Shown here one piece after another: positions 2,517 through 61,534 of a DNA stretch of 64,000 bases; position 1 is the stretch's first letter, and every line of letters begins with the position of its first letter. Below the pieces are notes generated by a model. That model searched no databases, had not been told where the DNA came from, and saw nothing but the letters and a program-made list of their open reading frames with translations. The stretch spans positions 653,663 to 717,662 of the forward strand of contig CATQHC010000002.1 in NCBI GenBank assembly GCA_958295775.1, given 5' to 3'. The stretch is from Chloroflexota bacterium (lineage in GTDB: Bacteria > Chloroflexota > UBA11872 > VXOZ01). The position numbers were made by a program, and so were the translations under genes.

Positions 2517-3722
2517 ATGGCGACAGTTGAGATTGAACGCATAGCCGGCGAAGATGATTCGGGTCTCATCCTGAATATGGGGCCGCAGCATCCCAGTACC
2601 CATGGTGTGTTGCGGGTCATCCTGAAGATGGACGGCGAGTACATCGAAGAAGCCGTTCCCATCATTGGTTACCTGCATCGCGGCACCGAAAAGATTGCCG
2701 AGAGCGAGACCTATACCCAGATACTTGGGTATACCGATCGCATGGACTACACTGCCGCAGCCTCCAGTAACCTGGGCTGGCTGGTGGCTGTGGAAACTCT
2801 TGCCGGCATCGAAGTGCCGGAACGCGCCCAGTGGCTGCGCTGCATCGTGGGCGAGTTGGGGCGTCTGGCAGGGCATCTGGTGTGGATTGGCACCCATGCC
2901 CTGGACATCGGCGCCATGTCAATATTCCTGTATGCCTTCCGCGCGCGTGAACGCGTGCTGGAGCTTTTCGAAGAGCTCTGCGGCGCGCGCATGACCCACA
3001 GTGTGATGCGCCCCGGCGGCTTTCTTGAAGAACCGCGCGACCCATTCTATCGAAAACTTGAGGATTCTCTAGATTACTTCCTCCGCGAGATCGATCAGTT
3101 CGACAAGTTGCTTTCAAGAAATGAGCTCTGGCTTGGACGCACCATAGACGTGGGCGTTATTTCCGGCGATGACGCGATCGCCATGGGCCTATCAGGACCA
3201 TGTTTGCGCGGCTCGGGAGTGGCATGGGACATCCGCAAGACGGAACCGTATGCGGCCTATGACAAGGTAGAGTTCGACGTACCGATTGGCACCGGCAAGG
3301 GCGACGTCTTCAGCCGCTACCTGCTGCGCATCGAGGAAATGCGGCAGAGCGTGCGCATCATGCGTCAGGTAACAGAACACCTGCCGCCGGGCCCGGTGAT
3401 GACTGATGATTCGCGCGTCGGTCGCCCGGACACACCGCGCCTCTACACCGATATGGAAGCCATGATCAACCACTTTTGGATGTATATCCACGGCTTCCCG
3501 GTGCAGCGCGGCGAGACGTACTGCGCCATCGAGGCGCCAAAGGGCGAGCTTGGCTTCTACGTCGTCAGTGACGGCAGCGGCAAGCCCTACCGGATGCACG
3601 TGCGTTCGCCTTCCTTTGTCAACCTGCAGTCGTTGCCGTACTTGGTAAAGGGCCGGTTGTTGGCGGACGTGGTTTCCGTCATTGGCAGTATTGACATCGT
3701 GCTAGGTGAAATTGATCGATGA
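2517..3722 (+). CDS. nuoD: NADH-quinone oxidoreductase subunit D (49 kDa)
   Basis: 401 aa with NuoD/NiFe-hydrogenase large-subunit-like motifs (RGxEK, C-terminal DIVLGEIDR). Confidence 0.93.
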   Translation: MATVEIERIAGEDDSGLILNMGPQHPSTHGVLRVILKMDGEYIEEAVPIIGYLHRGTEKIAESETYTQILGYTDRMDYTAAASSNLGWLVAVETLAGIEVPERAQWLRCIVGELGRLAGHLVWIGTHALDIGAMSIFLYAFRARERVLELFEELCGARMTHSVMRPGGFLEEPRDPFYRKLEDSLDYFLREIDQFDKLLSRNELWLGRTIDVGVISGDDAIAMGLSGPCLRGSGVAWDIRKTEPYAAYDKVEFDVPIGTGKGDVFSRYLLRIEEMRQSVRIMRQVTEHLPPGPVMTDDSRVGRPDTPRLYTDMEAMINHFWMYIHGFPVQRGETYCAIEAPKGELGFYVVSDGSGKPYRMHVRSPSFVNLQSLPYLVKGRLLADVVSVIGSIDIVLGEIDR

Positions 3723-3784: not shown

Positions 3785-6322
3785 ATGCCGACTCCTTCGG
3801 AGAAGACGGTAACACTTACAGTTGACGGCCAAGAGGTAACGGTACCTGACGGCGCGACGATTCTGGATGCGGCGCGCAAGGCCGGCATCTACATACCCAC
3901 CCTGTGCTTCGATACCTTCCTCAAGCCGTACGGCGCGTGCCGCATGTGCGTGGTAGAGGTCGAACGGGCGCCAAAGCCCCTCTCCTCCTGCAACACGGCA
4001 GCCATGGAAGGCATGGTAGTCAGCACCAAAGCCGAGCCGGTGGTGCACGCCCAGCAGGGCATCATGGAAATGACTTTGCAGCACCACCCGTTGGATTGTC
4101 CCTATTGCGACAAGTCCGGCGTGTGCGATCTCCAGCACACTGCGTACGAGGTCGGCGTATACCGCAGTAAGTTGGGCAGCGATAATCCGAACGAACCCGA
4201 CCATGAGTTCAGCCCTCTAATCGAGTGGGACCCAAATCGCTGCATATATTGCGGCAAGTGTGTGCGAGTTTGCGATGAGCGTGTTGGCGACAGCGCGCTT
4301 ACCTTCAATCTGCGCGGGTTTCACAGCTACATAGGTACCCAATTCGATGAACCGCTTGACTGCGTCGAGTGCGGCGAGTGCATCGAAGTCTGTCCGGTGG
4401 GCGCGCTGCTCAGCCGACCCTTTATGCATAGCGGGCGTGCCTGGCAAGTACACCAGAGCGAGTCCGTGTGTAACCACTGCAGCGTTGGGTGCCAGTTGCA
4501 CGTTGAAACACGCATGGGTGAGGTGCTGCGCACAAAGGCCAATCCGGCGCTCCGGGACCAAACTCCGGTGAACACCAGAGATCGCGGTCCGGGAGACGGC
4601 ATGCTCTGCACACGGGGCCGCTTTGGCTACGACTACATCCATGATGACGGACGCCTGGCTCAGCCCCTCGTCCGCAGGGACGGGCAGCTTGAACCGGCAA
4701 GCTGGGACGAGGCCCTTAATTTGGTTGCAACCAAGATTTCAGAAGCAAAATCGGACCATGGCGCGGATTCGATTTCCGCAGTGACTTCAGGACGTATTTC
4801 GGACGAAGAGAATTACCTCATCTCGCGCCTCATGCGGGAAGTAGTGGGCACCAACAACATCGACAGTACCGAGCGCTGGACCTTCATTCCAACGCTTAAG
4901 GCCCTGGGTCCTGCCGCGTTCAACTTCAGCATTGCCCAGATGGAGCACATGGACGCGTACCTTGTCGTTGGCGGGGACCTCATGGAAAGCCACGATGTGC
5001 TGGGTATGCGTTTGCGGCAGTGGGTTCGCGACCAAGGGAAGCTCCTCATTCAGGCGGGCAGCCTGCCCAGCAGACAGGATGGTCGCTTCGCGAACCGGGT
5101 GCTGCGCGTACGGCCCGGCGCCGAGGTGCATCTGCTGCACGGCCTCGCCGCGGAGCTTTTACGTCAGTCCGCGGACGACAACCCTCCGGACGAATTACAG
5201 TCATATAGCTTAGAACGGTCTGCTGCCGACACCGGCATCCCAGTGGATGATCTCCGCGAAACCGCCGCACAGCTTAGACAGGCCGGCAACATCGGTATAG
5301 TGTGGGGACTTGGCAGTTGGCTGATTGGCGGCGCGGCAGGCTTGGCCCAGTCGGCAGCGAACCTTGCGCTGGCACTGCCCGGGGCAGAGCTCTTCCCATT
5401 GGCTAACAAGGCGAACTCGCGCGGCCTGGTGCAAATGGGCGCTGGCGCCGATATCTTGCCAAACTTCCGCAGCAGCGACGATGCACAGGCCCGCAGCGCG
5501 CTAGGCCGCCTGTGGGACGTGGTTCTACCGGAGTCTCAGGGCAATTCATTGGATGATCTATTGGCCGGCGCTGATGTTTCCGTGCTCTACATTGTCGGCG
5601 AAGACCTGGCTACCAGCGCCCGCAATCATGGACAGGCCGCAGCGCTTCTGCACCGGGCGCAGTTTGTGGTAGTGCAAGACCTGTTTGTCACCGAAACGGC
5701 GGCACAATACGCCGATGTCGTCTTGCCTGCCGTCAGTTTTGCCGAGAAGACCGGTACTTACACCAATTTGGAAGGTCGTACGCAACGGGCGCAAGCGGCA
5801 ATTACACCGGTGGGGGAGGCAAAACCCGATTGGCAGATCTTCTGTGAACTTGCCCTGCAGCTTGGCGCACGGTGGACCTACCGGAATCCCGATGCCGTGG
5901 CCCAAGAAATCGTAGAAGTGATGGCAGACATTCCCATTACCCATAGCGAACCGCGTTTTGGCTGGCAGGAGCTGCCGGTACTGCCAAGTGTGAACGGAGA
6001 CGGCAAGCTGCTCTTGGTGACCCAGGATCATCTCTTTGTGCCCGGTGTCACCGGACGTTATAGTAGCAACCTGCGTCGTTTGGTGGCCGAACCGGTTGCA
6101 GAATTGCACCCGGTACAGTTGGAACGCCTTGGCATCAATGACGGTGACAAAGTGGGCATTCAAGCAAACGGTGCAGACCTGACCGTAACGGCAAAGGCCA
6201 ACGATAAATTAGTCGAGGATGTAGTCTATCTTCCCGTTGGCTTCCCGGACGCGCCGGTAGGCGCATTGCTCGGCACAGAAGCCACGGTGGCTGTATCAGT
6301 GCGCGCCGCGTCCGCAGACTAG
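3785..6322 (+). CDS. nuoG: NADH-quinone oxidoreductase subunit G (75 kDa)
   Basis: N-terminal 2Fe-2S ferredoxin fold, HxxxCxxC/CxxCxxC 4Fe-4S motifs, C-terminal molybdopterin-oxidoreductase-like domain; follows nuoD with no nuoE/nuoF between. Confidence 0.9.
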   Translation: MPTPSEKTVTLTVDGQEVTVPDGATILDAARKAGIYIPTLCFDTFLKPYGACRMCVVEVERAPKPLSSCNTAAMEGMVVSTKAEPVVHAQQGIMEMTLQHHPLDCPYCDKSGVCDLQHTAYEVGVYRSKLGSDNPNEPDHEFSPLIEWDPNRCIYCGKCVRVCDERVGDSALTFNLRGFHSYIGTQFDEPLDCVECGECIEVCPVGALLSRPFMHSGRAWQVHQSESVCNHCSVGCQLHVETRMGEVLRTKANPALRDQTPVNTRDRGPGDGMLCTRGRFGYDYIHDDGRLAQPLVRRDGQLEPASWDEALNLVATKISEAKSDHGADSISAVTSGRISDEENYLISRLMREVVGTNNIDSTERWTFIPTLKALGPAAFNFSIAQMEHMDAYLVVGGDLMESHDVLGMRLRQWVRDQGKLLIQAGSLPSRQDGRFANRVLRVRPGAEVHLLHGLAAELLRQSADDNPPDELQSYSLERSAADTGIPVDDLRETAAQLRQAGNIGIVWGLGSWLIGGAAGLAQSAANLALALPGAELFPLANKANSRGLVQMGAGADILPNFRSSDDAQARSALGRLWDVVLPESQGNSLDDLLAGADVSVLYIVGEDLATSARNHGQAAALLHRAQFVVVQDLFVTETAAQYADVVLPAVSFAEKTGTYTNLEGRTQRAQAAITPVGEAKPDWQIFCELALQLGARWTYRNPDAVAQEIVEVMADIPITHSEPRFGWQELPVLPSVNGDGKLLLVTQDHLFVPGVTGRYSSNLRRLVAEPVAELHPVQLERLGINDGDKVGIQANGADLTVTAKANDKLVEDVVYLPVGFPDAPVGALLGTEATVAVSVRAASAD

Positions 6323-46497: not shown

Positions 46498-46607
46498 CCA
46501 AAACTCCGTAGGAATCGTGCCATCCGAAGGCGCAATCGGTCAGTTGAGCGATCACTCAAGTGTGTAGCATTGTTCAATTGATCAGGGTCAAACTCAATTG
46601 AAATGAC

Positions 46608-47411
46608 CTAGAAACTAGCAGTATTTGGGAGATCCACTCGAACCTTCTCGATAAGCGAAAGCAATTCCGAATAGGTGTTGGGCCCGCCAATGTAGTCCCA
46701 TAGCTCGCTGCCAATTAAGACCTGCTTCTCCATGTCCATTATTTGTTTTGTAAATGAGTGCCCATAGCGATCCCGCGTCACGTAAGGGTTATAGGTCAGG
46801 CCCAGATACGCCCTGGATCTATCGATTCCTCGTCTGTTCATTATGGTCAAGTAATACAGCAGCTTTCTCTTAGACTCTGCAGCAACATCCAGATTAGGGA
46901 GAGGACTCTTCAACTCAACAAGCAAGGGCCCTTGTTCAAAGTCATCTATGTATAGGTCGGCAGTTACCGATCTATTTGACTGTCCACCACCACGCGAATA
47001 AAGGATGTCTCCCATCTCGCCCTCATGGTCAGGTCTTCTCGGAGACTCCCGTTGAGATTGAGGCGTCCGGAGCTCGGTCACAATCTGCTCGATCATATTT
47101 ATAGCTGCATCGTTTACAGTGCCTTCAACAACGTGCTCCGTGTGAACACTCTTGAATCGACCAAACGCAACGGCTTTGGCCAGAGCTGGGTAAAGCCTCG
47201 TGCCCATCGATGTCACAACACTCCGCTCAACCCTGGCCGCCAAGATTGCTTCTTCAGGAAAGAAAATCTGGTGGAACGGATATCCGAGTCTTATGTCTTC
47301 GATCGTCCACTTGCTCAGTTTGGGAATCTGACTTGCAGCAAACTCCCTTAGGACACCAAAGACAGCGTCTCTTGTCGTGGAATTCAACCCTACTATCCTT
47401 TTGCCGCCCAA
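46608..47411 (-). CDS. Putative type II restriction endonuclease (PD-(D/E)xK-like), low GC
   Basis: 267 aa, D...(E)LK core (DLYIDDFEQGPLLVELKS); immediately downstream of and overlapping a DNA methyltransferase gene; GC ~50% versus ~62% flanks. Confidence 0.6.
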   Translation of the reverse strand: MGGKRIVGLNSTTRDAVFGVLREFAASQIPKLSKWTIEDIRLGYPFHQIFFPEEAILAARVERSVVTSMGTRLYPALAKAVAFGRFKSVHTEHVVEGTVNDAAINMIEQIVTELRTPQSQRESPRRPDHEGEMGDILYSRGGGQSNRSVTADLYIDDFEQGPLLVELKSPLPNLDVAAESKRKLLYYLTIMNRRGIDRSRAYLGLTYNPYVTRDRYGHSFTKQIMDMEKQVLIGSELWDYIGGPNTYSELLSLIEKVRVDLPNTASF

Positions 47412-48619
47412 ATCAGAACGCTCTCGAAGAAATCTCCAGCCCTTCTTCCCGTCCTTCTGTTTACGTGTCTCTCAAGCCTAGTCTCAAGAGACACTCCAAT
47501 TTGCTCCTGGACTGTCTCGTAGAGACCATACTTGTCGTTGACGATAACCACCATTCGACCGTCTTTGGAGAGGCTCCTCTTGACATTCTCAAACGACTCG
47601 ATCATCTTTTTGACGTACTCAGCTTGCGCTCTCTGCGAGCTTCCATTCGTGGCTGGACCAATCTCCTCCTCAGCCTTCCACTCTAGACCCAGCAACTCGT
47701 ATGCATACCTATGTTGCTCATGATAGTCAATAAGCCCCACATATGGTGGCGAGGTGACTACAAGGTCGTACTTTGGGAACTGGGCTCTTCTCGTGTCGTC
47801 AGTAGCTATGAGTGTGGCCACATTTTTGCGAACATCAGCAAACTCACGAATTCGTTTGAGTGTATCGTTGCTATATCGTTTCAAAAACTGTGCAGAGTTT
47901 TTTGTTGGTCTGCAGGTTCGGCTATGTTTATAGCAGTAATAGGGTTCAGTTTGAGGCTGCTTTGGAAAGTCGAGGTCAAAATGCGTTGTAAGGCGCGCCG
48001 ACCTGGCTGCCCTTGATAAGATCACCCTGAGGACGTCACTGTAAGTGTAATCTTCAATGTGCTTCCGGTATGCTAGCAACGAACCTAGTGCTTGAGGCGC
48101 AAACCACGACTGTAGGTAGTCACTCACGTTATACTCGGCTTTTTGTTCAAGCAACGAGAGTTGGTTAGTGCCAAGCGCCCTCTTCAACGCATCGTTAATC
48201 TCATACTCAAGTAGACTTAGGTCGTACTTGCCTGTCTTTACTCGGGTCATTAGGGTGTTGAATTCGGAAATATCACACCCTATCGCATTTATCCCTAGCG
48301 ACGCCGCTTCAACCAAGGTTGTGCCCGAGCCGCAAAATGGATCACAGACCGTTGTAGGCTCAAATTTGCGTAGGAATATCTCGACCAACTGGGGAACGAA
48401 CTTTCCAAGATAGGGATGAAGGCGATGGACATGTTTCGTCCGAATTCGCTCCGGCAAGTCGCTTTCGCGCCAGTTGAGATTGAGGACTTCTAGCTTCGTA
48501 CTTGACCTAACTGAATCGAACGCGGTGAACGGGTCCGTTTGATAATCGGGATCGTACCCATATGACCTGTCGGCGCCAAGAGGTGATGTAGATGAGAGAT
48601 TGGTCTTGGTCTGCTTCAT
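47393..48619 (-). CDS. Site-specific DNA methyltransferase (N4-C or N6-A, amino-MTase)
   Basis: Motif I DPFCGSGTT and motif IV SPPY; low GC; start chosen at MKQTKT (ATGA overlap with the upstream stop); longer alternative starts at 48655. Confidence 0.8.
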   Translation of the reverse strand: MKQTKTNLSSTSPLGADRSYGYDPDYQTDPFTAFDSVRSSTKLEVLNLNWRESDLPERIRTKHVHRLHPYLGKFVPQLVEIFLRKFEPTTVCDPFCGSGTTLVEAASLGINAIGCDISEFNTLMTRVKTGKYDLSLLEYEINDALKRALGTNQLSLLEQKAEYNVSDYLQSWFAPQALGSLLAYRKHIEDYTYSDVLRVILSRAARSARLTTHFDLDFPKQPQTEPYYCYKHSRTCRPTKNSAQFLKRYSNDTLKRIREFADVRKNVATLIATDDTRRAQFPKYDLVVTSPPYVGLIDYHEQHRYAYELLGLEWKAEEEIGPATNGSSQRAQAEYVKKMIESFENVKRSLSKDGRMVVIVNDKYGLYETVQEQIGVSLETRLERHVNRRTGRRAGDFFESVLIWAAKG

Positions 48620-49797
48620 AGAGAAACAGTAACCCATCCGAGTTCTTCCCGCCAATTCGGCGCAACGTCGCCGAACCTATCCATGCGCAATCCGCTTATG
48701 TCAACGCTCGTATCGCCGTGGAGCGCCAATTCGCTCACGACCCTGCCTGTGGCGCCTGCGATGGCGAAGCCATGGGCCGACGCGGAGACAAACACAAAGT
48801 TGCTCGGATTGTCGAGGATGTCAATGATTGGCAGGGAGTCCGGTGCCTGTTCTATCACGCCGGCCCAGCTCCGGATTACCGGCACGTCCGCCACCCCTGG
48901 GAACAAGTCTGCCAGCCGCCTGGCTATGTTTCGAATGAGCGGCGTGTTGGGCTTGCTGGGATCGGAGGTCAGATCCACATCGATCCATTCGTGGGGCCCC
49001 CCTCCATAGAGCAGGTTGCCCTTCTTAGCCTGGCGCCCGTAGAGTCCGTTTCCCACCAGGGCGAATTGAAAGAGTGGCTCTAAGGGAGCGGTGGCAATAA
49101 TCTCTGCCCGTGCCGTTGCGAGCGGAACGCGCACGCCCACCATCTCTAAAAACAACGCAGTTTGCGGTCCGGCAGCACATACAACCGTGTCGGTCTCAAT
49201 GGCGCCGGCGGTCGTCTCAACCGCTGAGACCCTCTCGCCGGCGAGCTTGAAACCCGTGGCGGCGGTATGCTGGTAGAGCTTGCCGCCCCGGTCTTGAAAG
49301 GCCCAGGCAAATGCCTGGACTGATCGTTGAGGGTTCGCGTGCGCGCCCTTCGGGAAAAAGATCCCGCCGAGCGATCTATCGGTGACGTACGGCGCCATGT
49401 CCTTGATTTCGGATGGGTCCAACACGTCCACTTGTACGCCGAAACGTTCCCCTACCTCTCGTTCGGTCAGGTAGCGGTCCATTTCCGGTTCGGATACGGC
49501 TATTTGGAGCCTGCCTGCTTGCACGAACTCAGTGGGATAGCCCAGCTCATCGTCCAGCATCTCCCATAGTTTCACAGACTCCACCGCCAACGGCACCAAA
49601 GCCGGCTCGTCAGTTCGCTCGCTGATCATCCCGCCGTTGCGCCCGGAAGCCTCGGCTCCGACGACACTCTTCTCGACGACGACGACATCCTTGCCCGCCT
49701 TGGCCAGATAATAGGCTGTGCTGAGGCCCGAAATGCCACCGCCAATGACGACTACGTCTGCTCTGTTGCTAGGCATGCTGCCACTCCGCTGATCCAC
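48616..49797 (-). CDS. FAD-dependent oxidoreductase, sarcosine-oxidase-beta / HcnC / OoxB-like
   Basis: VVIGGGISG dinucleotide motif, DAO-family architecture, ~390 aa. Confidence 0.8.
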   Translation of the reverse strand: MDQRSGSMPSNRADVVVIGGGISGLSTAYYLAKAGKDVVVVEKSVVGAEASGRNGGMISERTDEPALVPLAVESVKLWEMLDDELGYPTEFVQAGRLQIAVSEPEMDRYLTEREVGERFGVQVDVLDPSEIKDMAPYVTDRSLGGIFFPKGAHANPQRSVQAFAWAFQDRGGKLYQHTAATGFKLAGERVSAVETTAGAIETDTVVCAAGPQTALFLEMVGVRVPLATARAEIIATAPLEPLFQFALVGNGLYGRQAKKGNLLYGGGPHEWIDVDLTSDPSKPNTPLIRNIARRLADLFPGVADVPVIRSWAGVIEQAPDSLPIIDILDNPSNFVFVSASAHGFAIAGATGRVVSELALHGDTSVDISGLRMDRFGDVAPNWREELGWVTVSL

Positions 49798-56043: not shown

Positions 56044-57579
<1,536 letters not shown>

Positions 57580-58073
57580 CTAGGGTCTTTACCCATTTTC
57601 TCCTATCCCCCCTTACCTCTCCTATACCTAACTCCCTCTCCCTTCATCACCCTTCACCTGCTAAACCCAGCCGCAAACTACTAATACCGCCTATGTCATC
57701 GTCCCTCTCACAAAGAGGGACTTTTTCTTTTACGCCCCCAAGTCAATGCTCCCGCAACAGTCAACCACGCAGAAACAGGTCCCGCGATCCGTTCGTTCCA
57801 ATACAAGTGGCGTCCCTTCTTTATCCGCAGACTTTACCTCGCTAGACTCATCATTCTGTGCGCGGATTTTGATAACTGATTTACCGATGCACGGCCAGAC
57901 CCGTGGCATCGCATGGCTTCCCAAACCGCGGCTTTGCGGAGTTGCACGCCGGCGTTTGCTGCGCTATATTCCTCCTGTGAGAAACTTGGTGTGCCTGCCG
58001 CGAATTTGGCGACGTACAGGCCAAACCGAGGATGGTACAATAGACGAAGAGCCTACGCTACAGCTTGTTTTCC

Positions 58074-58150
58074 GGGCCACTAGCTCAGTTGGTTAGAGCG
58101 CGCCCCTGATAAGGGCGAGGTCTGTGGTTCAAATCCACAGTGGCCCACCA
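58074..58150 (+). tRNA. tRNA-Ile (anticodon GAT)
   Basis: GGGCCAC acceptor, anticodon loop CTGATAA, T-arm, encoded CCA; in the spacer 3' of 16S. Confidence 0.9.
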
Positions 58151-58361
58151 CGACGGCAGCCATACAACCGCCTCTCAGCATGCGCGCCGCAGGCCGAACC
58201 GGGTACTTGGAGAGAGACTTCACCAGGCAACCATTGCGGCATTTGCCTGCAAACCCTTAGGGATTGTTGGAAGATTCAATCCAATTGCCCACCGACATGC
58301 GCGTACCTTGGGCATATTGGTGTGCACCCAGGCGCATGGCAGGCTCTGTGCTGCTAGTCAC

Positions 58362-58437
58362 GGGGATGTAGCTCAGTTGGGAGAGCACCTCCTTTGCAAG
58401 GAGGGGGTCAGGAGTTCGAGTCTCCTCATCTCCACCA
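58362..58437 (+). tRNA. tRNA-Ala (anticodon TGC)
   Basis: GGGGATG acceptor with the G3-U70 identity pair, anticodon loop TTTGCAA, encoded CCA. Confidence 0.9.
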
Positions 58438-58510
58438 TTTTAGATTTGAGACCAGATGAGTATCGAACTCCCCCGCAGCTATAGTGGTCGTCCCGATTGG
58501 GAGGAAGCGC

Positions 58511-58957
58511 ATGAAGCAGATTGCTGACATTGCCGTATATTCGCCGGATGACCGGTTGAAACTCATCGTCGAGGTCAAGAACTACAGGAACGCGACCGAC
58601 GAATGGGCTGCCAAACTGCGGAGGAACCTGTTAGTCGATGGGTTCATCCCAGCCTCGGAGTTTTTCCTACTGGTTTTACCAGAGCATTCTTACCTCTGGC
58701 GAAGGTGCGAATCTATTGATGCGGTTCCGGCGGACTACAAGCTTTCTACTAAAGACGTGCTGCAACTTCGTGGAGACTCAGCCAACCCAGACAAACTGAG
58801 CTCTTTCAGTTTGGAGTTGTTGACCAGTTCTTGGCTAAACGCGCTGGCTGTTTCCCAAGTAACCAGAGGGGAGGTGCCAGAATTGGAATGGATATTTGAA
58901 TCGGGCCTTTATGACAGTGTCAAGGACGGCTTGGTCAAGATTGAATCGGAGCTGTGA
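58511..58957 (+). CDS. Small PD-(D/E)xK-like (Hjc/Mrr-type core) nuclease-fold protein, low GC
   Basis: ATG with a strong GGGAGGA RBS 5 nt upstream; N-terminus IADIAVYSPDDRLKLIVEVK matches the D-h-h-A...h-h-E-V-K restriction-endonuclease-like core; GC ~50%. Confidence 0.5.
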   Translation: MKQIADIAVYSPDDRLKLIVEVKNYRNATDEWAAKLRRNLLVDGFIPASEFFLLVLPEHSYLWRRCESIDAVPADYKLSTKDVLQLRGDSANPDKLSSFSLELLTSSWLNALAVSQVTRGEVPELEWIFESGLYDSVKDGLVKIESEL

Positions 58958-59559
58958 TTGTCTTTATTGAATCCAACTTCGTGCTGGAACTGGCTCTCCT
59001 CCAAGAGGAACATCGGAGTTGCGATTCCATCCTTAGCCTTGCGGAGTCCCTGACTATTGATTTGGCAATACCGGCCTTCAGCTTGTTCGAGCCTTACGAG
59101 GTGTGGCGGCGGCGTACAAGGGAGCGGGCCGAGTTGCATGGACGCCTCAATCGGGAAATGAGCCAGTTGGCACGTACGGAGCCATACGCCAAAACCGTTG
59201 AGGACTTGGCGGATCCAGCGTCGATTCTGTTACGGAGTGGAAATGAGGACAAGCGCAGGTTGGATCTAACTATTGGTAGGATTCTCGACTGCGCCGAAAT
59301 GATACCTCTCCAAGGAAAAACTCTCAGGGACGCCATCCATTTCCAGGGATCCCTAGACCTTTCCCCACAGGATTCGGTTGTGTACGCCTCGGTGATGGCC
59401 CACCTGTCGGCCGCTTCACCTGGCCCCAAGTGTTTTCTGAACAGAGACCGTAAAGACTTCTCAATACCGGATATCAGGGAGGAATTAGGGCGAAATGACT
59501 GTCAACTAATCGCTAGGTTTGCCGGGGGCCTCAGCTACATAAACTCGCTGCAGGCCTGA
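58954..59559 (+). CDS. PIN-like domain protein (tentative), translationally coupled to the upstream ORF
   Basis: GTGA start/stop overlap; N-terminal strand MIVFIESNFVLE (PIN beta1-like with E for D) and C-terminal FLNRDRKDF resembling the PIN T-x-N-x-KDF terminal motif; low GC. Confidence 0.35.
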   Translation: MIVFIESNFVLELALLQEEHRSCDSILSLAESLTIDLAIPAFSLFEPYEVWRRRTRERAELHGRLNREMSQLARTEPYAKTVEDLADPASILLRSGNEDKRRLDLTIGRILDCAEMIPLQGKTLRDAIHFQGSLDLSPQDSVVYASVMAHLSAASPGPKCFLNRDRKDFSIPDIREELGRNDCQLIARFAGGLSYINSLQA

Positions 59560-59579
59560 CATACGCCATAACCGTTCAT

Positions 59580-59900
59580 GTGCCAGTCCCACCAAACTGG
59601 GATCCTTATATCTGGACTATCCACCGAAGACTTCGAAATACGGTGCACTCATCTCCACCAGATTTTACGAATTCTAGAACCTTCACCTTGGAGTTCTTTC
59701 GGAACCTGTATAGATTGCGTGGCGATCTTCCGAGCCCCGGCCACATGAAAAAGAATCCAGTGTCGTCCAACGAGTATGGACTTTACAAAGAGACCATTGG
59801 GAAGTGCTTCCCGGACCTTGTCGTGGACTCCATCAAACTGGCCAGTGAAGGATTGGATGACCTGGCTCTGGCCACCTACGATGAGTTGGTATTCCGGTAG
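59580..59900 (+). CDS. Hypothetical protein (106 aa), low GC
   Basis: ORF in the same low-GC block as the two preceding genes; no recognisable motif. Confidence 0.35.
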   Translation: MPVPPNWDPYIWTIHRRLRNTVHSSPPDFTNSRTFTLEFFRNLYRLRGDLPSPGHMKKNPVSSNEYGLYKETIGKCFPDLVVDSIKLASEGLDDLALATYDELVFR

Positions 59901-60106
59901 CCAAATCTTGACTAAGCCGTCTCCAATATTGAGCTTGAGGCAACCTTGCTGTGCCCGGGTTGCTAGAGAGGCTCGACGTACGTATACCGCCCCCAGAGTT
60001 GTATGGATCGCTGCGTAGTTGCTGCCCGGGTCGTCTTGGAAGTTCACCCACTCGACTGTCGCGGCTTCTCTTTTCCAAACCGCCAAAGTATGCGAGTATA
60101 TTCGCC

Positions 60107-61219
60107 ATGCTAAATCTCCCTCATGCCGATGTCGTTGGGAGCTTGATACGACCGCCGGAGCTGCTCGTCGCGCGCGAGGAATTTGCGGCCGGGCTAATCT
60201 CGCCCGCGGCATTCAAGCGCACCGAGGACGCCGCTGTCGATAGCGCCGTTGCTGCTCAGGAGGACTCCGGACTTGAAATCCTCACCGACGGCGAAATGCG
60301 CCGGCTCTCGTTTCAGAGTCAGATGCCCGAGGCAGTCGCAGGCTTTGGCGAGTTCGATATCGACGCGTTCCTCTGGGGCGATTGGCAGGGCGACGAACGG
60401 GTAGGAGACTCGCGCACGGAGCGTCCCGCGACTTTGGGTGTCGTCGGCCGCCTCCAGCGGAAGCGCCACCTGTCGGCGGAGGAGTTCACCTACCTGCGCG
60501 GCCGCACCACGCGCAGAGCAAAGGTGACATTGCCGAGCCCCAGCCTGTTCGCCAACTTCTGGTCGCCGGTGCAGTCCGCCGCAGCCTACCCCACCCTGGA
60601 TGCGTTTTTGGCTGATGTAGCGGCGATAGTCCGTGGGGAGATCGAAGAGCTAGTCAGGCTTGGGGCGACGTATATTCAACTCGACGCTCCGCACTATCCG
60701 CTCGTGCTAGATCCGGCATGGGCGGCCTTCTACGAGGCCCAGGGCTCGTCTGCGGAGGACTGGATCGCCCAAGGTGTCGAACTGGACAACGCCGTGATGG
60801 ACGGTTTCTCGGAAGTTATATTCGCGGTCCATCTCTGTCGAGGGAACCAGGGCGGTCGTTGGCTGGTCGCAGGCAGTTACGACCGGATTGTCGAGCCGGT
60901 TCTCCAGCGCATAAACGCGCAGCGGCTGATGCTGGAGTACGACGATCCACGCTCAGGCTCGTTCGAGCCTCTGCGCGGCGTGCCCGACGACAAGCTCGTG
61001 GGGCTGGGGCTGGTTACGACCAAGTCACCGCGCGCGGAGGACGTAGCCGAGCTTGAATCTCGGATCGCCGAGGCTGCCCGCCACTTCCCCCTGGAGCAAC
61101 TCGCCATCAGTCCGCAGTGCGGGTTCGCATCATCCATCGTCGGCAATCCGCTTTCGATCGAGCAGCAAAACGCAAAACTCCGCATCGTCGCCGAGACCGC
61201 CCGCCACGTTTGGGGATAA
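60107..61219 (+). CDS. Cobalamin-independent methionine synthase (MetE) catalytic-domain-like protein, short stand-alone form
   Basis: ~370 aa; MetE C-terminal-domain pattern incl. zinc ligands H-x-C (AVHLCRG), Glu and Cys (ISPQCGF). Confidence 0.7.
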   Translation: MLNLPHADVVGSLIRPPELLVAREEFAAGLISPAAFKRTEDAAVDSAVAAQEDSGLEILTDGEMRRLSFQSQMPEAVAGFGEFDIDAFLWGDWQGDERVGDSRTERPATLGVVGRLQRKRHLSAEEFTYLRGRTTRRAKVTLPSPSLFANFWSPVQSAAAYPTLDAFLADVAAIVRGEIEELVRLGATYIQLDAPHYPLVLDPAWAAFYEAQGSSAEDWIAQGVELDNAVMDGFSEVIFAVHLCRGNQGGRWLVAGSYDRIVEPVLQRINAQRLMLEYDDPRSGSFEPLRGVPDDKLVGLGLVTTKSPRAEDVAELESRIAEAARHFPLEQLAISPQCGFASSIVGNPLSIEQQNAKLRIVAETARHVWG

Positions 61220-61458: not shown

Positions 61459-61534
61459 GGAGATGTAGCCCGGTTGGGAGAGAACCTCCTTTGCAAGGAG
61501 AGGGGCAAGAGGTCGTGTCTCCTCAACTCCACCC
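61459..61534 (+). pseudogene. Degenerate copy of tRNA-Ala (pseudo-tRNA / att-like remnant)
   Basis: Aligns over ~76 nt with tRNA-Ala at 58362-58437 (same anticodon arm CCTCCTTTGCAAGGAG) but has mismatches in the D-, T- and acceptor stems and loses T54. Confidence 0.7.

Follow-up and report, generated by a model that had tools for sequence, protein, structure and literature searches.

A mobile two-gene module pairing a PIN_12 nuclease with a probable minimal PD-(D/E)xK protein, integrated at a tRNA-Ala gene of a Chloroflexota bacterium

We analysed a low-GC islet at positions 58438-59900 of a 64,000-nucleotide (nt) stretch from a Chloroflexota bacterium (GenBank assembly GCA_958295775.1, contig CATQHC010000002.1, positions 653,663 to 717,662 of the forward strand; hereafter the window, with coordinates counted from its first letter). 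The islet begins directly behind a tRNA-Ala gene and carries two coupled genes on the + strand, here called ORF1 (58511-58957, 148 amino acids (aa)) and ORF2 (58954-59559, 201 aa). Together they form a real, conserved and mobile two-gene module whose members are inherited together. ORF2 is predicted to encode a VapC-like PIN nuclease, the proposed toxic effector, while ORF1, in the position of an antitoxin gene, encodes a probable minimal PD-(D/E)xK protein. We interpret the islet as an integrated copy of a horizontally mobile, two-gene unit of ~1.1 kb resembling a type II toxin-antitoxin (TA) system with a role in addiction or abortive infection, and put the probability of this interpretation at roughly 0.55. 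An initial annotation made from the letters of the window had proposed a candidate TA or defence module at this place. That proposal is supported, by comparative genomics only, and its core withstood each of the tests that the annotation had named as capable of refuting it.

The three open reading frames listed by the initial annotation are present, as are the translation signals that it described. ORF1 starts with an ATG at 58511, five nucleotides behind a Shine-Dalgarno sequence, GGGAGGA (58499-58505), which lies in a 73-nt leader between tRNA-Ala and ORF1 (58438-58510, + strand). ORF2 starts with a GTG and overlaps ORF1 by 4 nt (GTGA, 58954-58957), and overlaps of the same length were found in the called genes of seven further loci (L001-L007) and in RefSeq plasmid annotations. 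The GC content of 58438-59900 is 51.7% versus a window mean of 57.6% (z = -2.6; lowest 2.4% of same-size windows), so that the reported dip is real but milder than first described (~52% versus ~58%, not ~50% versus ~62%). The GC content at third codon positions points the same way (~0.60 for ORF1 and ORF2, versus 0.73-0.77 in neighbouring genes) and marks the islet as compositionally distinct.

To survey the module we used both genes as seeds. A PIN-seeded survey with one genome per species yielded 210 confirmed loci, and neighbourhoods were taken from 80 of these: an ORF1-family gene was located immediately upstream of the PIN gene in 79/80, the lone exception being a PIN fragment. From the other direction, PIN was found directly downstream of ORF1 in 65/71 informative ORF1-seeded metagenome loci, so that the two families co-occur, as the initial annotation had asked, almost without exception. 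The distance matrices of the two families are strongly correlated (Mantel r = 0.894; permutation maximum 0.18), with ORF1 evolving at ~1.14 times the rate of PIN in a comparison of distances. No third gene is conserved with them: the 150 nearest flanking ORFs were assigned to 133 Pfam families, none of which occurred in >6 ORFs. Hosts come from at least ten phyla (including Chloroflexota, Acidobacteriota, Latescibacterota, Gemmatimonadota, Cyanobacteria, Pseudomonadota, Planctomycetota, Bacteroidota, Armatimonadota and Binatia), and the nearest copies, at 73-82% amino-acid identity, are found in Dehalococcoidia. The pair is also carried by seven cyanobacterial or Hymenobacter plasmids, where it is annotated as 'hypothetical protein' plus 'PIN domain-containing protein'; on one cyanobacterial plasmid (29.6 kb, Tolypothrix PCC 7601) it lies beside ParA/CopG-type genes, and in L001-L004 some copies sit amid other TA pairs. 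The initial annotation had not recognised the pairing as a named system, and we likewise found it uncatalogued: it has no match in PADLOC, NCBIfam or PHROGs, no PADLOC-DB v2.0.0 model matches ORF1, ORF2 or the adjoining ORF3 at E<=1, and a literature search returned no description of a TA pair composed of a PD-(D/E)xK and a PIN protein.

Two further observations concern the placement of copies. One Thiomargarita metagenome-assembled genome holds two copies on different contigs (L065 and L076), and toxin-antitoxin modules typically occur more than once in a genome. In four Chloroflexota loci, the module is located directly downstream of a hemN/hemW-like radical-SAM gene (61-81% identity among the four; L001, 4786-5988; L011, 2273-3475; L012, 2228-3448; L018, 1290-2510), which suggests that some lineages of the phylum have kept it there by vertical descent over longer periods.

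The boundaries of the insertion can be recognised from a short direct repeat. The insertion target, tRNA-Ala(TGC) (58362-58437, + strand), is the final gene of a 16S-tRNA-Ile-tRNA-Ala unit, and an exact second copy of its last 13 nt (58425-58437, CTCATCTCCACCA) lies at 59648-59660 on the + strand, 89 nt past ORF2, in the manner of a right-hand attachment (att) site, attR. The two copies bracket a 1,210-bp insert (58438-59647) that contains ORF1 and ORF2 only. The window contains this 13-mer at these two places and nowhere else, and its chance expectation in 1.6 kb is ~2e-5. We also considered that the repeat might be part of a longer degenerate tRNA copy, but an extension test gave no support for this. 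Nucleotide homology with the Dehalococcoidia copies is limited to 58484-59593, covering both genes, ~25 nt upstream and ~35 nt downstream, and the flanks of those copies are unrelated to the flanks in the window.

An empty site was located in a relative by way of the neighbouring metE-like gene. In locus L171, where that gene has 88% nucleotide identity to the window, tRNA-Ala is followed by ~300 nt and then the metE-like gene, with no module (4626-5001), as expected if the islet is foreign, as the initial annotation had suggested. In a second relative, L170 (2781-5001), the corresponding point is occupied by another insert of 2 kb, behind which come CCACCA and the native sequence; this insert codes for a protein of 450 aa that matches HEPN weakly (E = 6e-4, under the cut-off). 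The stretch from tRNA-Ala to the metE-like gene is an insertion hot-spot, and a 97%-identical strain (L090) carries the module at the same site. A 22-mer spanning the empty-site junction had no match in JGI metagenomes. With tRNA 3' repeats on both flanks and an empty site in a relative, the insert has the features of a tRNA-targeted element.

Comparable structures were identified at three other loci. In L009 the module is enclosed by an 18-nt repeat of tRNA-Lys (3515-3532 and 4602-4619), the distal copy of which overlaps the PIN stop codon, in L048 by an 18-nt repeat of tRNA-Phe (3359-3376 and 4640-4657), and in L058 by a repeat of ~89 nt that comprises tRNA-Phe from the anticodon stem on (3193-3281 and 4636-4725). 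Thus, at all four intact tRNA-adjacent loci (tRNA-Ala, tRNA-Lys and tRNA-Phe twice), repeated 3' portions of the tRNA enclose the two-gene module alone, in inserts of 1.1-1.4 kb that hold nothing except the gene pair. The starting points of the repeats vary among the four (extreme 3' end, T-loop and anticodon stem). No integrase or recombinase gene was found in the 1,210-bp insert or near L009, L048 and L058, whose flanks encode oxidoreductases, a GreA/Rnk-type factor and proteins without a Pfam match. Overall, a tRNA is found directly upstream in 5 of ~87 loci, far over chance. Flanking repeats as a trait of every copy were ruled out, since only the tRNA-adjacent loci exceed the null.

We read this as the module being cargo of tRNA-targeting integrative elements, which either outlived its island or was mobilised in trans; a self-mobilising mechanism is less likely. 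Decayed tRNA-targeted islands and cis-mobilisable elements share with it the direct repeats of tRNA 3' parts, the missing integrase and a hot-spot that holds other cargo in a relative, but differ in that the inserts described here are only 1.1-1.4 kb long and consist of the gene pair alone at four loci and three tRNAs. Integrase-less, att-bracketed copies at three tRNAs would be a natural record of modules surviving their islands or, alternatively, point to an unrecognised way of moving. The T-arm of tRNA-Ala also forms an inverted repeat with the leader (58411-58427 and 58455-58471, 82% complementary), which could be what is left of an inverted piece of tRNA or of an att site.

ORF2 matches the Pfam family PIN_12 (PF16289, formerly DUF4935) over its whole profile (33.9 bits, gathering cut-off 32; profile positions 1-172 of 172), and so do 39/39 aligned homologues (best E = 1.9e-14), 37 of which additionally match the PIN family PF01850. 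Its AlphaFold2 model (predicted local distance difference test (pLDDT) score of 92.8) displays the PIN fold, a Rossmann-like alpha/beta/alpha sandwich in common with VapC nucleases, into which a helical hairpin of ~70 residues is inserted (residues 46-113). The catalytic metal-binding acidic set of PIN domains is typically D, E, D, D. Among 83 homologues of ORF2, E6, N8, E46 and D140 are conserved in 100% and D168 in 95%, and every member begins the acidic set with Glu, not Asp, so that the PIN-like assignment of the initial annotation was correct and the substitution that it had noted is a trait of the whole family. Taken together, profile, model and conservation show ORF2 to be a predicted VapC-like PIN_12 nuclease with its acidic site intact. 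A long helical insert after strand 2 has been described for DUF4935/PIN_12, a family listed without a known function, whose genes were reported as mostly monocistronic (Matelska et al. 2017, PMC5499597). ORF2 and its 39 homologues match the full model, and ORF2 has the same helical insert, but as a subfamily they differ in being 200 aa long and obligately paired with ORF1. This pairing would give a family labelled 'function unknown' a testable partner and role.

ORF1 represents an uncharacterised family of considerable size, with 1,418 clusters at 50% identity (E<=1e-3; 1,089 at E<=1e-10), nearly all of ~150 aa, and 63 homologues from a word-indexed search. It belongs to no family in Pfam, NCBIfam, PADLOC or PHROGs. 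In an alignment of 85 sequences, D6, N39 and W63 are conserved in 100%, E21 in 95% and K23 in 93%. The AlphaFold2 model (pLDDT 87; predicted template modelling score, pTM, 0.85; no stretch under pLDDT 50) is a compact alpha/beta globule in which D6 lies on the first strand (4-10) and E21-V-K23 ends the second (16-22), the two strands forming a beta-hairpin that is followed by a helix with R37-R38-N39. The model and the alignment thus agree in placing a D...(D/E)xK motif on two consecutive beta-strands. The sole recurrent profile match is to HSDR_N_2, a PD-(D/E)xK family (15/32 and 27/146 members; best E 1.6e-4), for which the window protein scores 15.5 and 12.5 bits, under the 25-bit cut-off. 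Isolated weak matches within the family were to AHJR-like, RE_SacI, NOV_C, DUF234, TnsA-like_N and BsuBI_PstI_RE, all of which are PD-(D/E)xK families. In Foldseek searches the best match was 3ijm ('restriction endonuclease-like fold'; E = 0.21, probability 0.41) and none reached E<=0.001, while profile searches against PDB sequences gave no relatives of either ORF1 or ORF2. The N-terminus lacks the canonical first helix and strand of the PD-(D/E)xK core.

Because the matches to PD-(D/E)xK families are weak, we hold the assignment of ORF1 as probable: judged by motif and model, it is probably a minimal variant of this restriction-endonuclease-like fold. The initial annotation had compared its N-terminus with the catalytic core of such nucleases; the D...ExK motif proved to be family-wide and the weak matches recurrent, but no structural or profile match was significant. 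Between 4 and 6 of the 85 homologues lack E21 or K23 and are still paired with PIN. ORF1 would define a new protein family, for which no Pfam model exists. One solo homologue (L104, 550-1206) has a Cys-rich N-terminal extension of ~65 aa and one family representative also matches DUF2281 (E = 3.6e-5), a hint of accessory domains in some members.

Where the module has decayed, the two genes have fared differently. In eight cases PIN was lost or inactivated and ORF1 is intact: an in-frame deletion removes D140 and D168 (L035), E46 is replaced by a stop (L037), PIN contains a stop codon (L064), an IS200/IS605 tnpA-tnpB element lies inside the PIN gene of Chroococcidiopsis pCHRO.01 (L173, NC_019699.1 262449-265184), an ISH3 transposase gene lies directly 3' of ORF1 on a Nostoc plasmid that has no PIN match (L172, NZ_CP151101.1 355220-357070), and ORF1 stands alone in L104, L112 and L114. 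No intact PIN standing alone was observed among the PIN-seeded and ORF1-seeded loci surveyed. A frameshift of ORF1 with an intact PIN in L012 comes from a low-coverage metagenome-assembled genome and is likely a sequencing error. PIN decays preferentially and ORF1 survives alone, which therefore argues that ORF1 is the protective partner.

A simple consensus scan found no sigma-70-like promoter on the + strand between tRNA-Ala and ORF1, so that transcripts of the tRNA/rRNA unit probably extend into the pair, whose expression we infer to occur by this read-through. Homology among copies begins ~25 nt before the ATG of ORF1, and in L009 tRNA-Lys ends 23 nt ahead of the ATG. Downstream, a terminator scan and RNA folding identified a short hairpin, GTCCCA-N6-TGGGAT (59586-59603, + strand, 27 nt past the ORF2 stop), which resembles a weak terminator and lies where the segment common to the copies ends (homology stops at ~59593); a hairpin is present at the corresponding place in L008. 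No structured RNA was detected in the leader or trailer, which fold no better than shuffles.

On the TA-like interpretation, the PIN protein would exert the toxicity, most likely as an RNase that, like VapC toxins, attacks tRNA, rRNA or mRNA, and ORF1, translated first and coupled to it, would restrain PIN, most likely through a protein-protein complex. The conserved catalytic-type residues of ORF1 suggest a nucleolytic or nucleic-acid-sensing role and, as far as conservation can tell, argue for more than passive inhibition. Lacking its own promoter, the pair would be transcribed through tRNA/rRNA read-through; it would have been brought on, or mobilised by, a tRNA-targeting integrative element, and we propose that it was kept as sole cargo because its loss is harmful. 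The architecture, fold, mobility and presence on plasmids fit a TA-like module with PIN as a putative toxic nuclease. VapBC is a close point of comparison, being likewise a bicistronic operon of overlapping genes with the partner gene upstream, having a conserved acidic catalytic set, and being mobile, patchily distributed and also plasmid-borne, with toxin genes that decay preferentially. The differences are that VapB is a small AbrB, RHH, HTH or Phd antitoxin with a disordered toxin-binding tail, whereas the partner here is a globular PD-(D/E)xK-like protein of 148 aa; that the acidic set of PIN begins with Glu rather than Asp throughout the family; that PIN contains the ~70-residue helical hairpin; and that VapBC has its own autoregulated promoter, whereas the module has no conserved promoter or operator. 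The module may thus be a variation on the PIN toxin-antitoxin theme that has no name yet and draws its partner from a new family. If this is true, it adds a widespread, unnamed family of TA or defence type, in which the nuclease-like fold in the antitoxin position is unlike any described VapB.

Several observations weigh against this interpretation. Searches of Pfam and NCBIfam detected no AbrB, RHH, HTH or Phd domain in ORF1, which has no disordered tail either, and its catalytic-type residues would be superfluous for a pure binding inhibitor. No upstream promoter or operator is conserved among copies, so autoregulation of the classical type II kind is not evident. The asymmetry of decay amounts to ~10 cases of mixed ascertainment and includes one clear case of a broken ORF1 with an apparently intact PIN, the only one of its kind (L054, 209-751), in which ORF1 is split by a ~70-nt segment with two in-frame stops. 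Furthermore, immediate neighbours are mostly housekeeping genes, with little defence enrichment and no defence islands, and no viral or phage copy was found in IMG/VR or INPHARED, nor any match in PHROGs, which also leaves a phage origin of the module unsupported.

The same features bear on the competing explanations. The pair could instead be a two-nuclease anti-phage (abortive infection) system, in which ORF1 would be an active PD-(D/E)xK DNase or sensor and an infection-activated complex would use both proteins as effectors. The conservation of D6, E21 and K23 (93-100% in 85 homologues), together with R37-R38-N39, suggests catalysis or the binding of metal or nucleic acid and would suit such a system, as would the weak HEPN match of the 450-aa protein at the tRNA-Ala site of L170 and a type II restriction-modification islet in the same window. 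A precedent for PIN12-type defence is Cosus (Brc24), the one PIN12-domain protein studied by experiment, an integron-cassette gene shown to defend against T7 by means of its PIN acidic residues (bioRxiv 10.1101/2024.07.02.601719). Cosus resembles the module in its PIN12-type domain and in being a promoterless mobile cassette, the cost of which depends on read-through expression, but the likeness to ORF2 is by domain description, it is a single gene without a PD-(D/E)xK partner, and it is moved by integron attC recombination, whereas the module is found at tRNA ends. Neither protein matches any PADLOC model, flanking genes show little defence enrichment, the pair is kept where 4-6 of the 85 ORF1 homologues miss E21 or K23, and the uneven decay speaks for a toxic partner and a protective one, so that we consider this explanation possible but on the whole unlikely. 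It would be compatible with the TA reading, because many TA modules are abortive-infection systems. Doubtful, too, is a more specific proposal in which an active ORF1 nuclease would control the PIN RNase as an enzymatic antitoxin or co-effector in a new dual-nuclease conflict system, cleaving or sensing DNA or RNA; the pair might be the split prokaryotic counterpart of the eukaryotic DUF1308/C7orf25, and the whole would be a promoterless, integrase-less tRNA-end cassette expressed by read-through. In DUF1308 (PF07000; human C7orf25) an N-terminal PD-(D/E)xK-like and a C-terminal PIN-like domain are fused (Matelska 2017, PMC5499597), that is, the same two folds in the same order as ORF1 and then ORF2, making it a possible fused counterpart. 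DUF1308 differs in being mainly eukaryotic, and PF07000 had no match at E<=1 to the window proteins or to the 32 ORF1 and 39 ORF2 homologues.

Three further explanations seem to us improbable. The tight bracketing of the four intact tRNA-adjacent copies (in L009 up to the PIN stop codon), flanks without an integrase and the excess of loci directly 3' of a tRNA (5 of ~87) would all follow if the pair were its own mobility machinery, a minimal selfish element whose nucleases cut the 3' ends of tRNA genes for homing-like insertion. This is a long shot, given that >90% of copies lie away from tRNAs without flanking repeats above the null and that an addictive module surviving the decay of a larger island yields the same pattern. 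In addition, the sublocations within tRNAs at which tyrosine integrases have their att sites fit the lengths and starts of the repeats, and such integration is not known to be catalysed by any PIN or PD-(D/E)xK pair. Similarly improbable is that the window copy is inert, left over from a decayed island and now without function: it has no promoter of its own, no integrase, an att-like remnant and unexplained low-GC sequence alongside, but both genes are full length with every conserved residue, the Shine-Dalgarno sequence and the 4-nt overlap are kept, and L090, the 97%-identical strain, holds the pair at the same site. Least credible of all is a pair of housekeeping nucleases for RNA processing or repair (for example, tRNA or rRNA maturation) placed beside the rRNA/tRNA unit for its function. 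The position directly 3' of 16S-tRNA-Ile-tRNA-Ala, with probable co-transcription, and the hemN/hemW-like upstream neighbour in four Chloroflexota loci would agree with it, and the PIN domains of Nob1 and Fcf1/Utp24 process rRNA (Matelska 2017, PMC5499597). Yet the site is empty in L171 and holds another insert in L170, close relatives have the pair at unrelated loci, its spread across phyla is patchy and includes plasmids, its composition is foreign and pseudogenised copies are frequent. For the TA-like reading preferred here, cultured hosts (Tolypothrix PCC 7601, Gloeothece PCC 7424, Massilia and Janthinobacterium) permit direct tests.

The third reading frame, ORF3 (59580-59900), exists and has no family match (Pfam, PADLOC, NCBIfam and PHROGs), in line with the initial annotation, which saw no recognisable motif in it, but it lies outside the module and is not part of the system. 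Among 5.8 billion proteins a single homologue turned up, partial and near-identical, a tblastn search of 87 related loci gave no match, and the frame runs across the tRNA-end repeat at 59648-59660. On these grounds a role as third component was ruled out, and ORF3 is probably no gene. Most of it falls in a low-GC tail (59661-59990, unstranded) that has no counterpart in relatives, similarity to L170 and L171 picking up again only at ~59991; the tail may be the remnant of an older insert or a diverged intergenic region. A minus-strand ORF at 59649-60212 has no Pfam match, and the next real gene after the islet is the metE-like methyltransferase gene, with profile matches from an ATG at 60107.

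Scans for rRNA and tRNA genes with ARAGORN and Rfam placed the 16S rRNA gene at 56045-57579 and tRNA-Ile at 58074-58150, and found no 23S gene within the 64-kb window. The initial annotation had expected a 23S gene where the islet begins, and its absence from the window is confirmed. In L170 and L171, as in the window, 16S-tRNA-Ile-tRNA-Ala leads directly to the same metE-like gene; this shared layout rules out the insert as the reason for the missing 23S gene and indicates that the unlinking of 16S and 23S is ancestral to the clade. The spacer between tRNA-Ile and tRNA-Ala (58151-58361) is ~210 nt long in the window versus ~52-55 nt in L090, L170 and L171, an excess of ~155 nt in the window. 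Between 16S and tRNA-Ile there is a strong hairpin of terminator type, followed by a T-run (GTCCCTCTCACAAAGAGGGAC TTTTTCTTTT; 57701-57731, + strand), which is unexpected inside an rRNA/tRNA transcription unit.

Beyond the metE-like gene, ARAGORN called a tRNA-Cys(GCA) at 61459-61533 that is in fact a degenerate, full-length copy of tRNA-Ala(TGC), ~85% identical, with the same anticodon loop and a broken T-loop; the Rfam tRNA model did not match it at E<=1. It is located between the metE-like gene and a 5'-truncated DUF2238-like ORF, has no equivalent there in L170 or L171, and may represent a pseudo-tRNA or what remains of an old att site. The restriction-modification islet lies at ~46.5-48.7 kb (46500-48700), where GC content is lower still (minimum ~47%), and consists of a type II pair on the minus strand, a RE_TdeIII endonuclease (46608-47411; E = 3e-48) and an N6/N4 DNA methylase (47393-48655).

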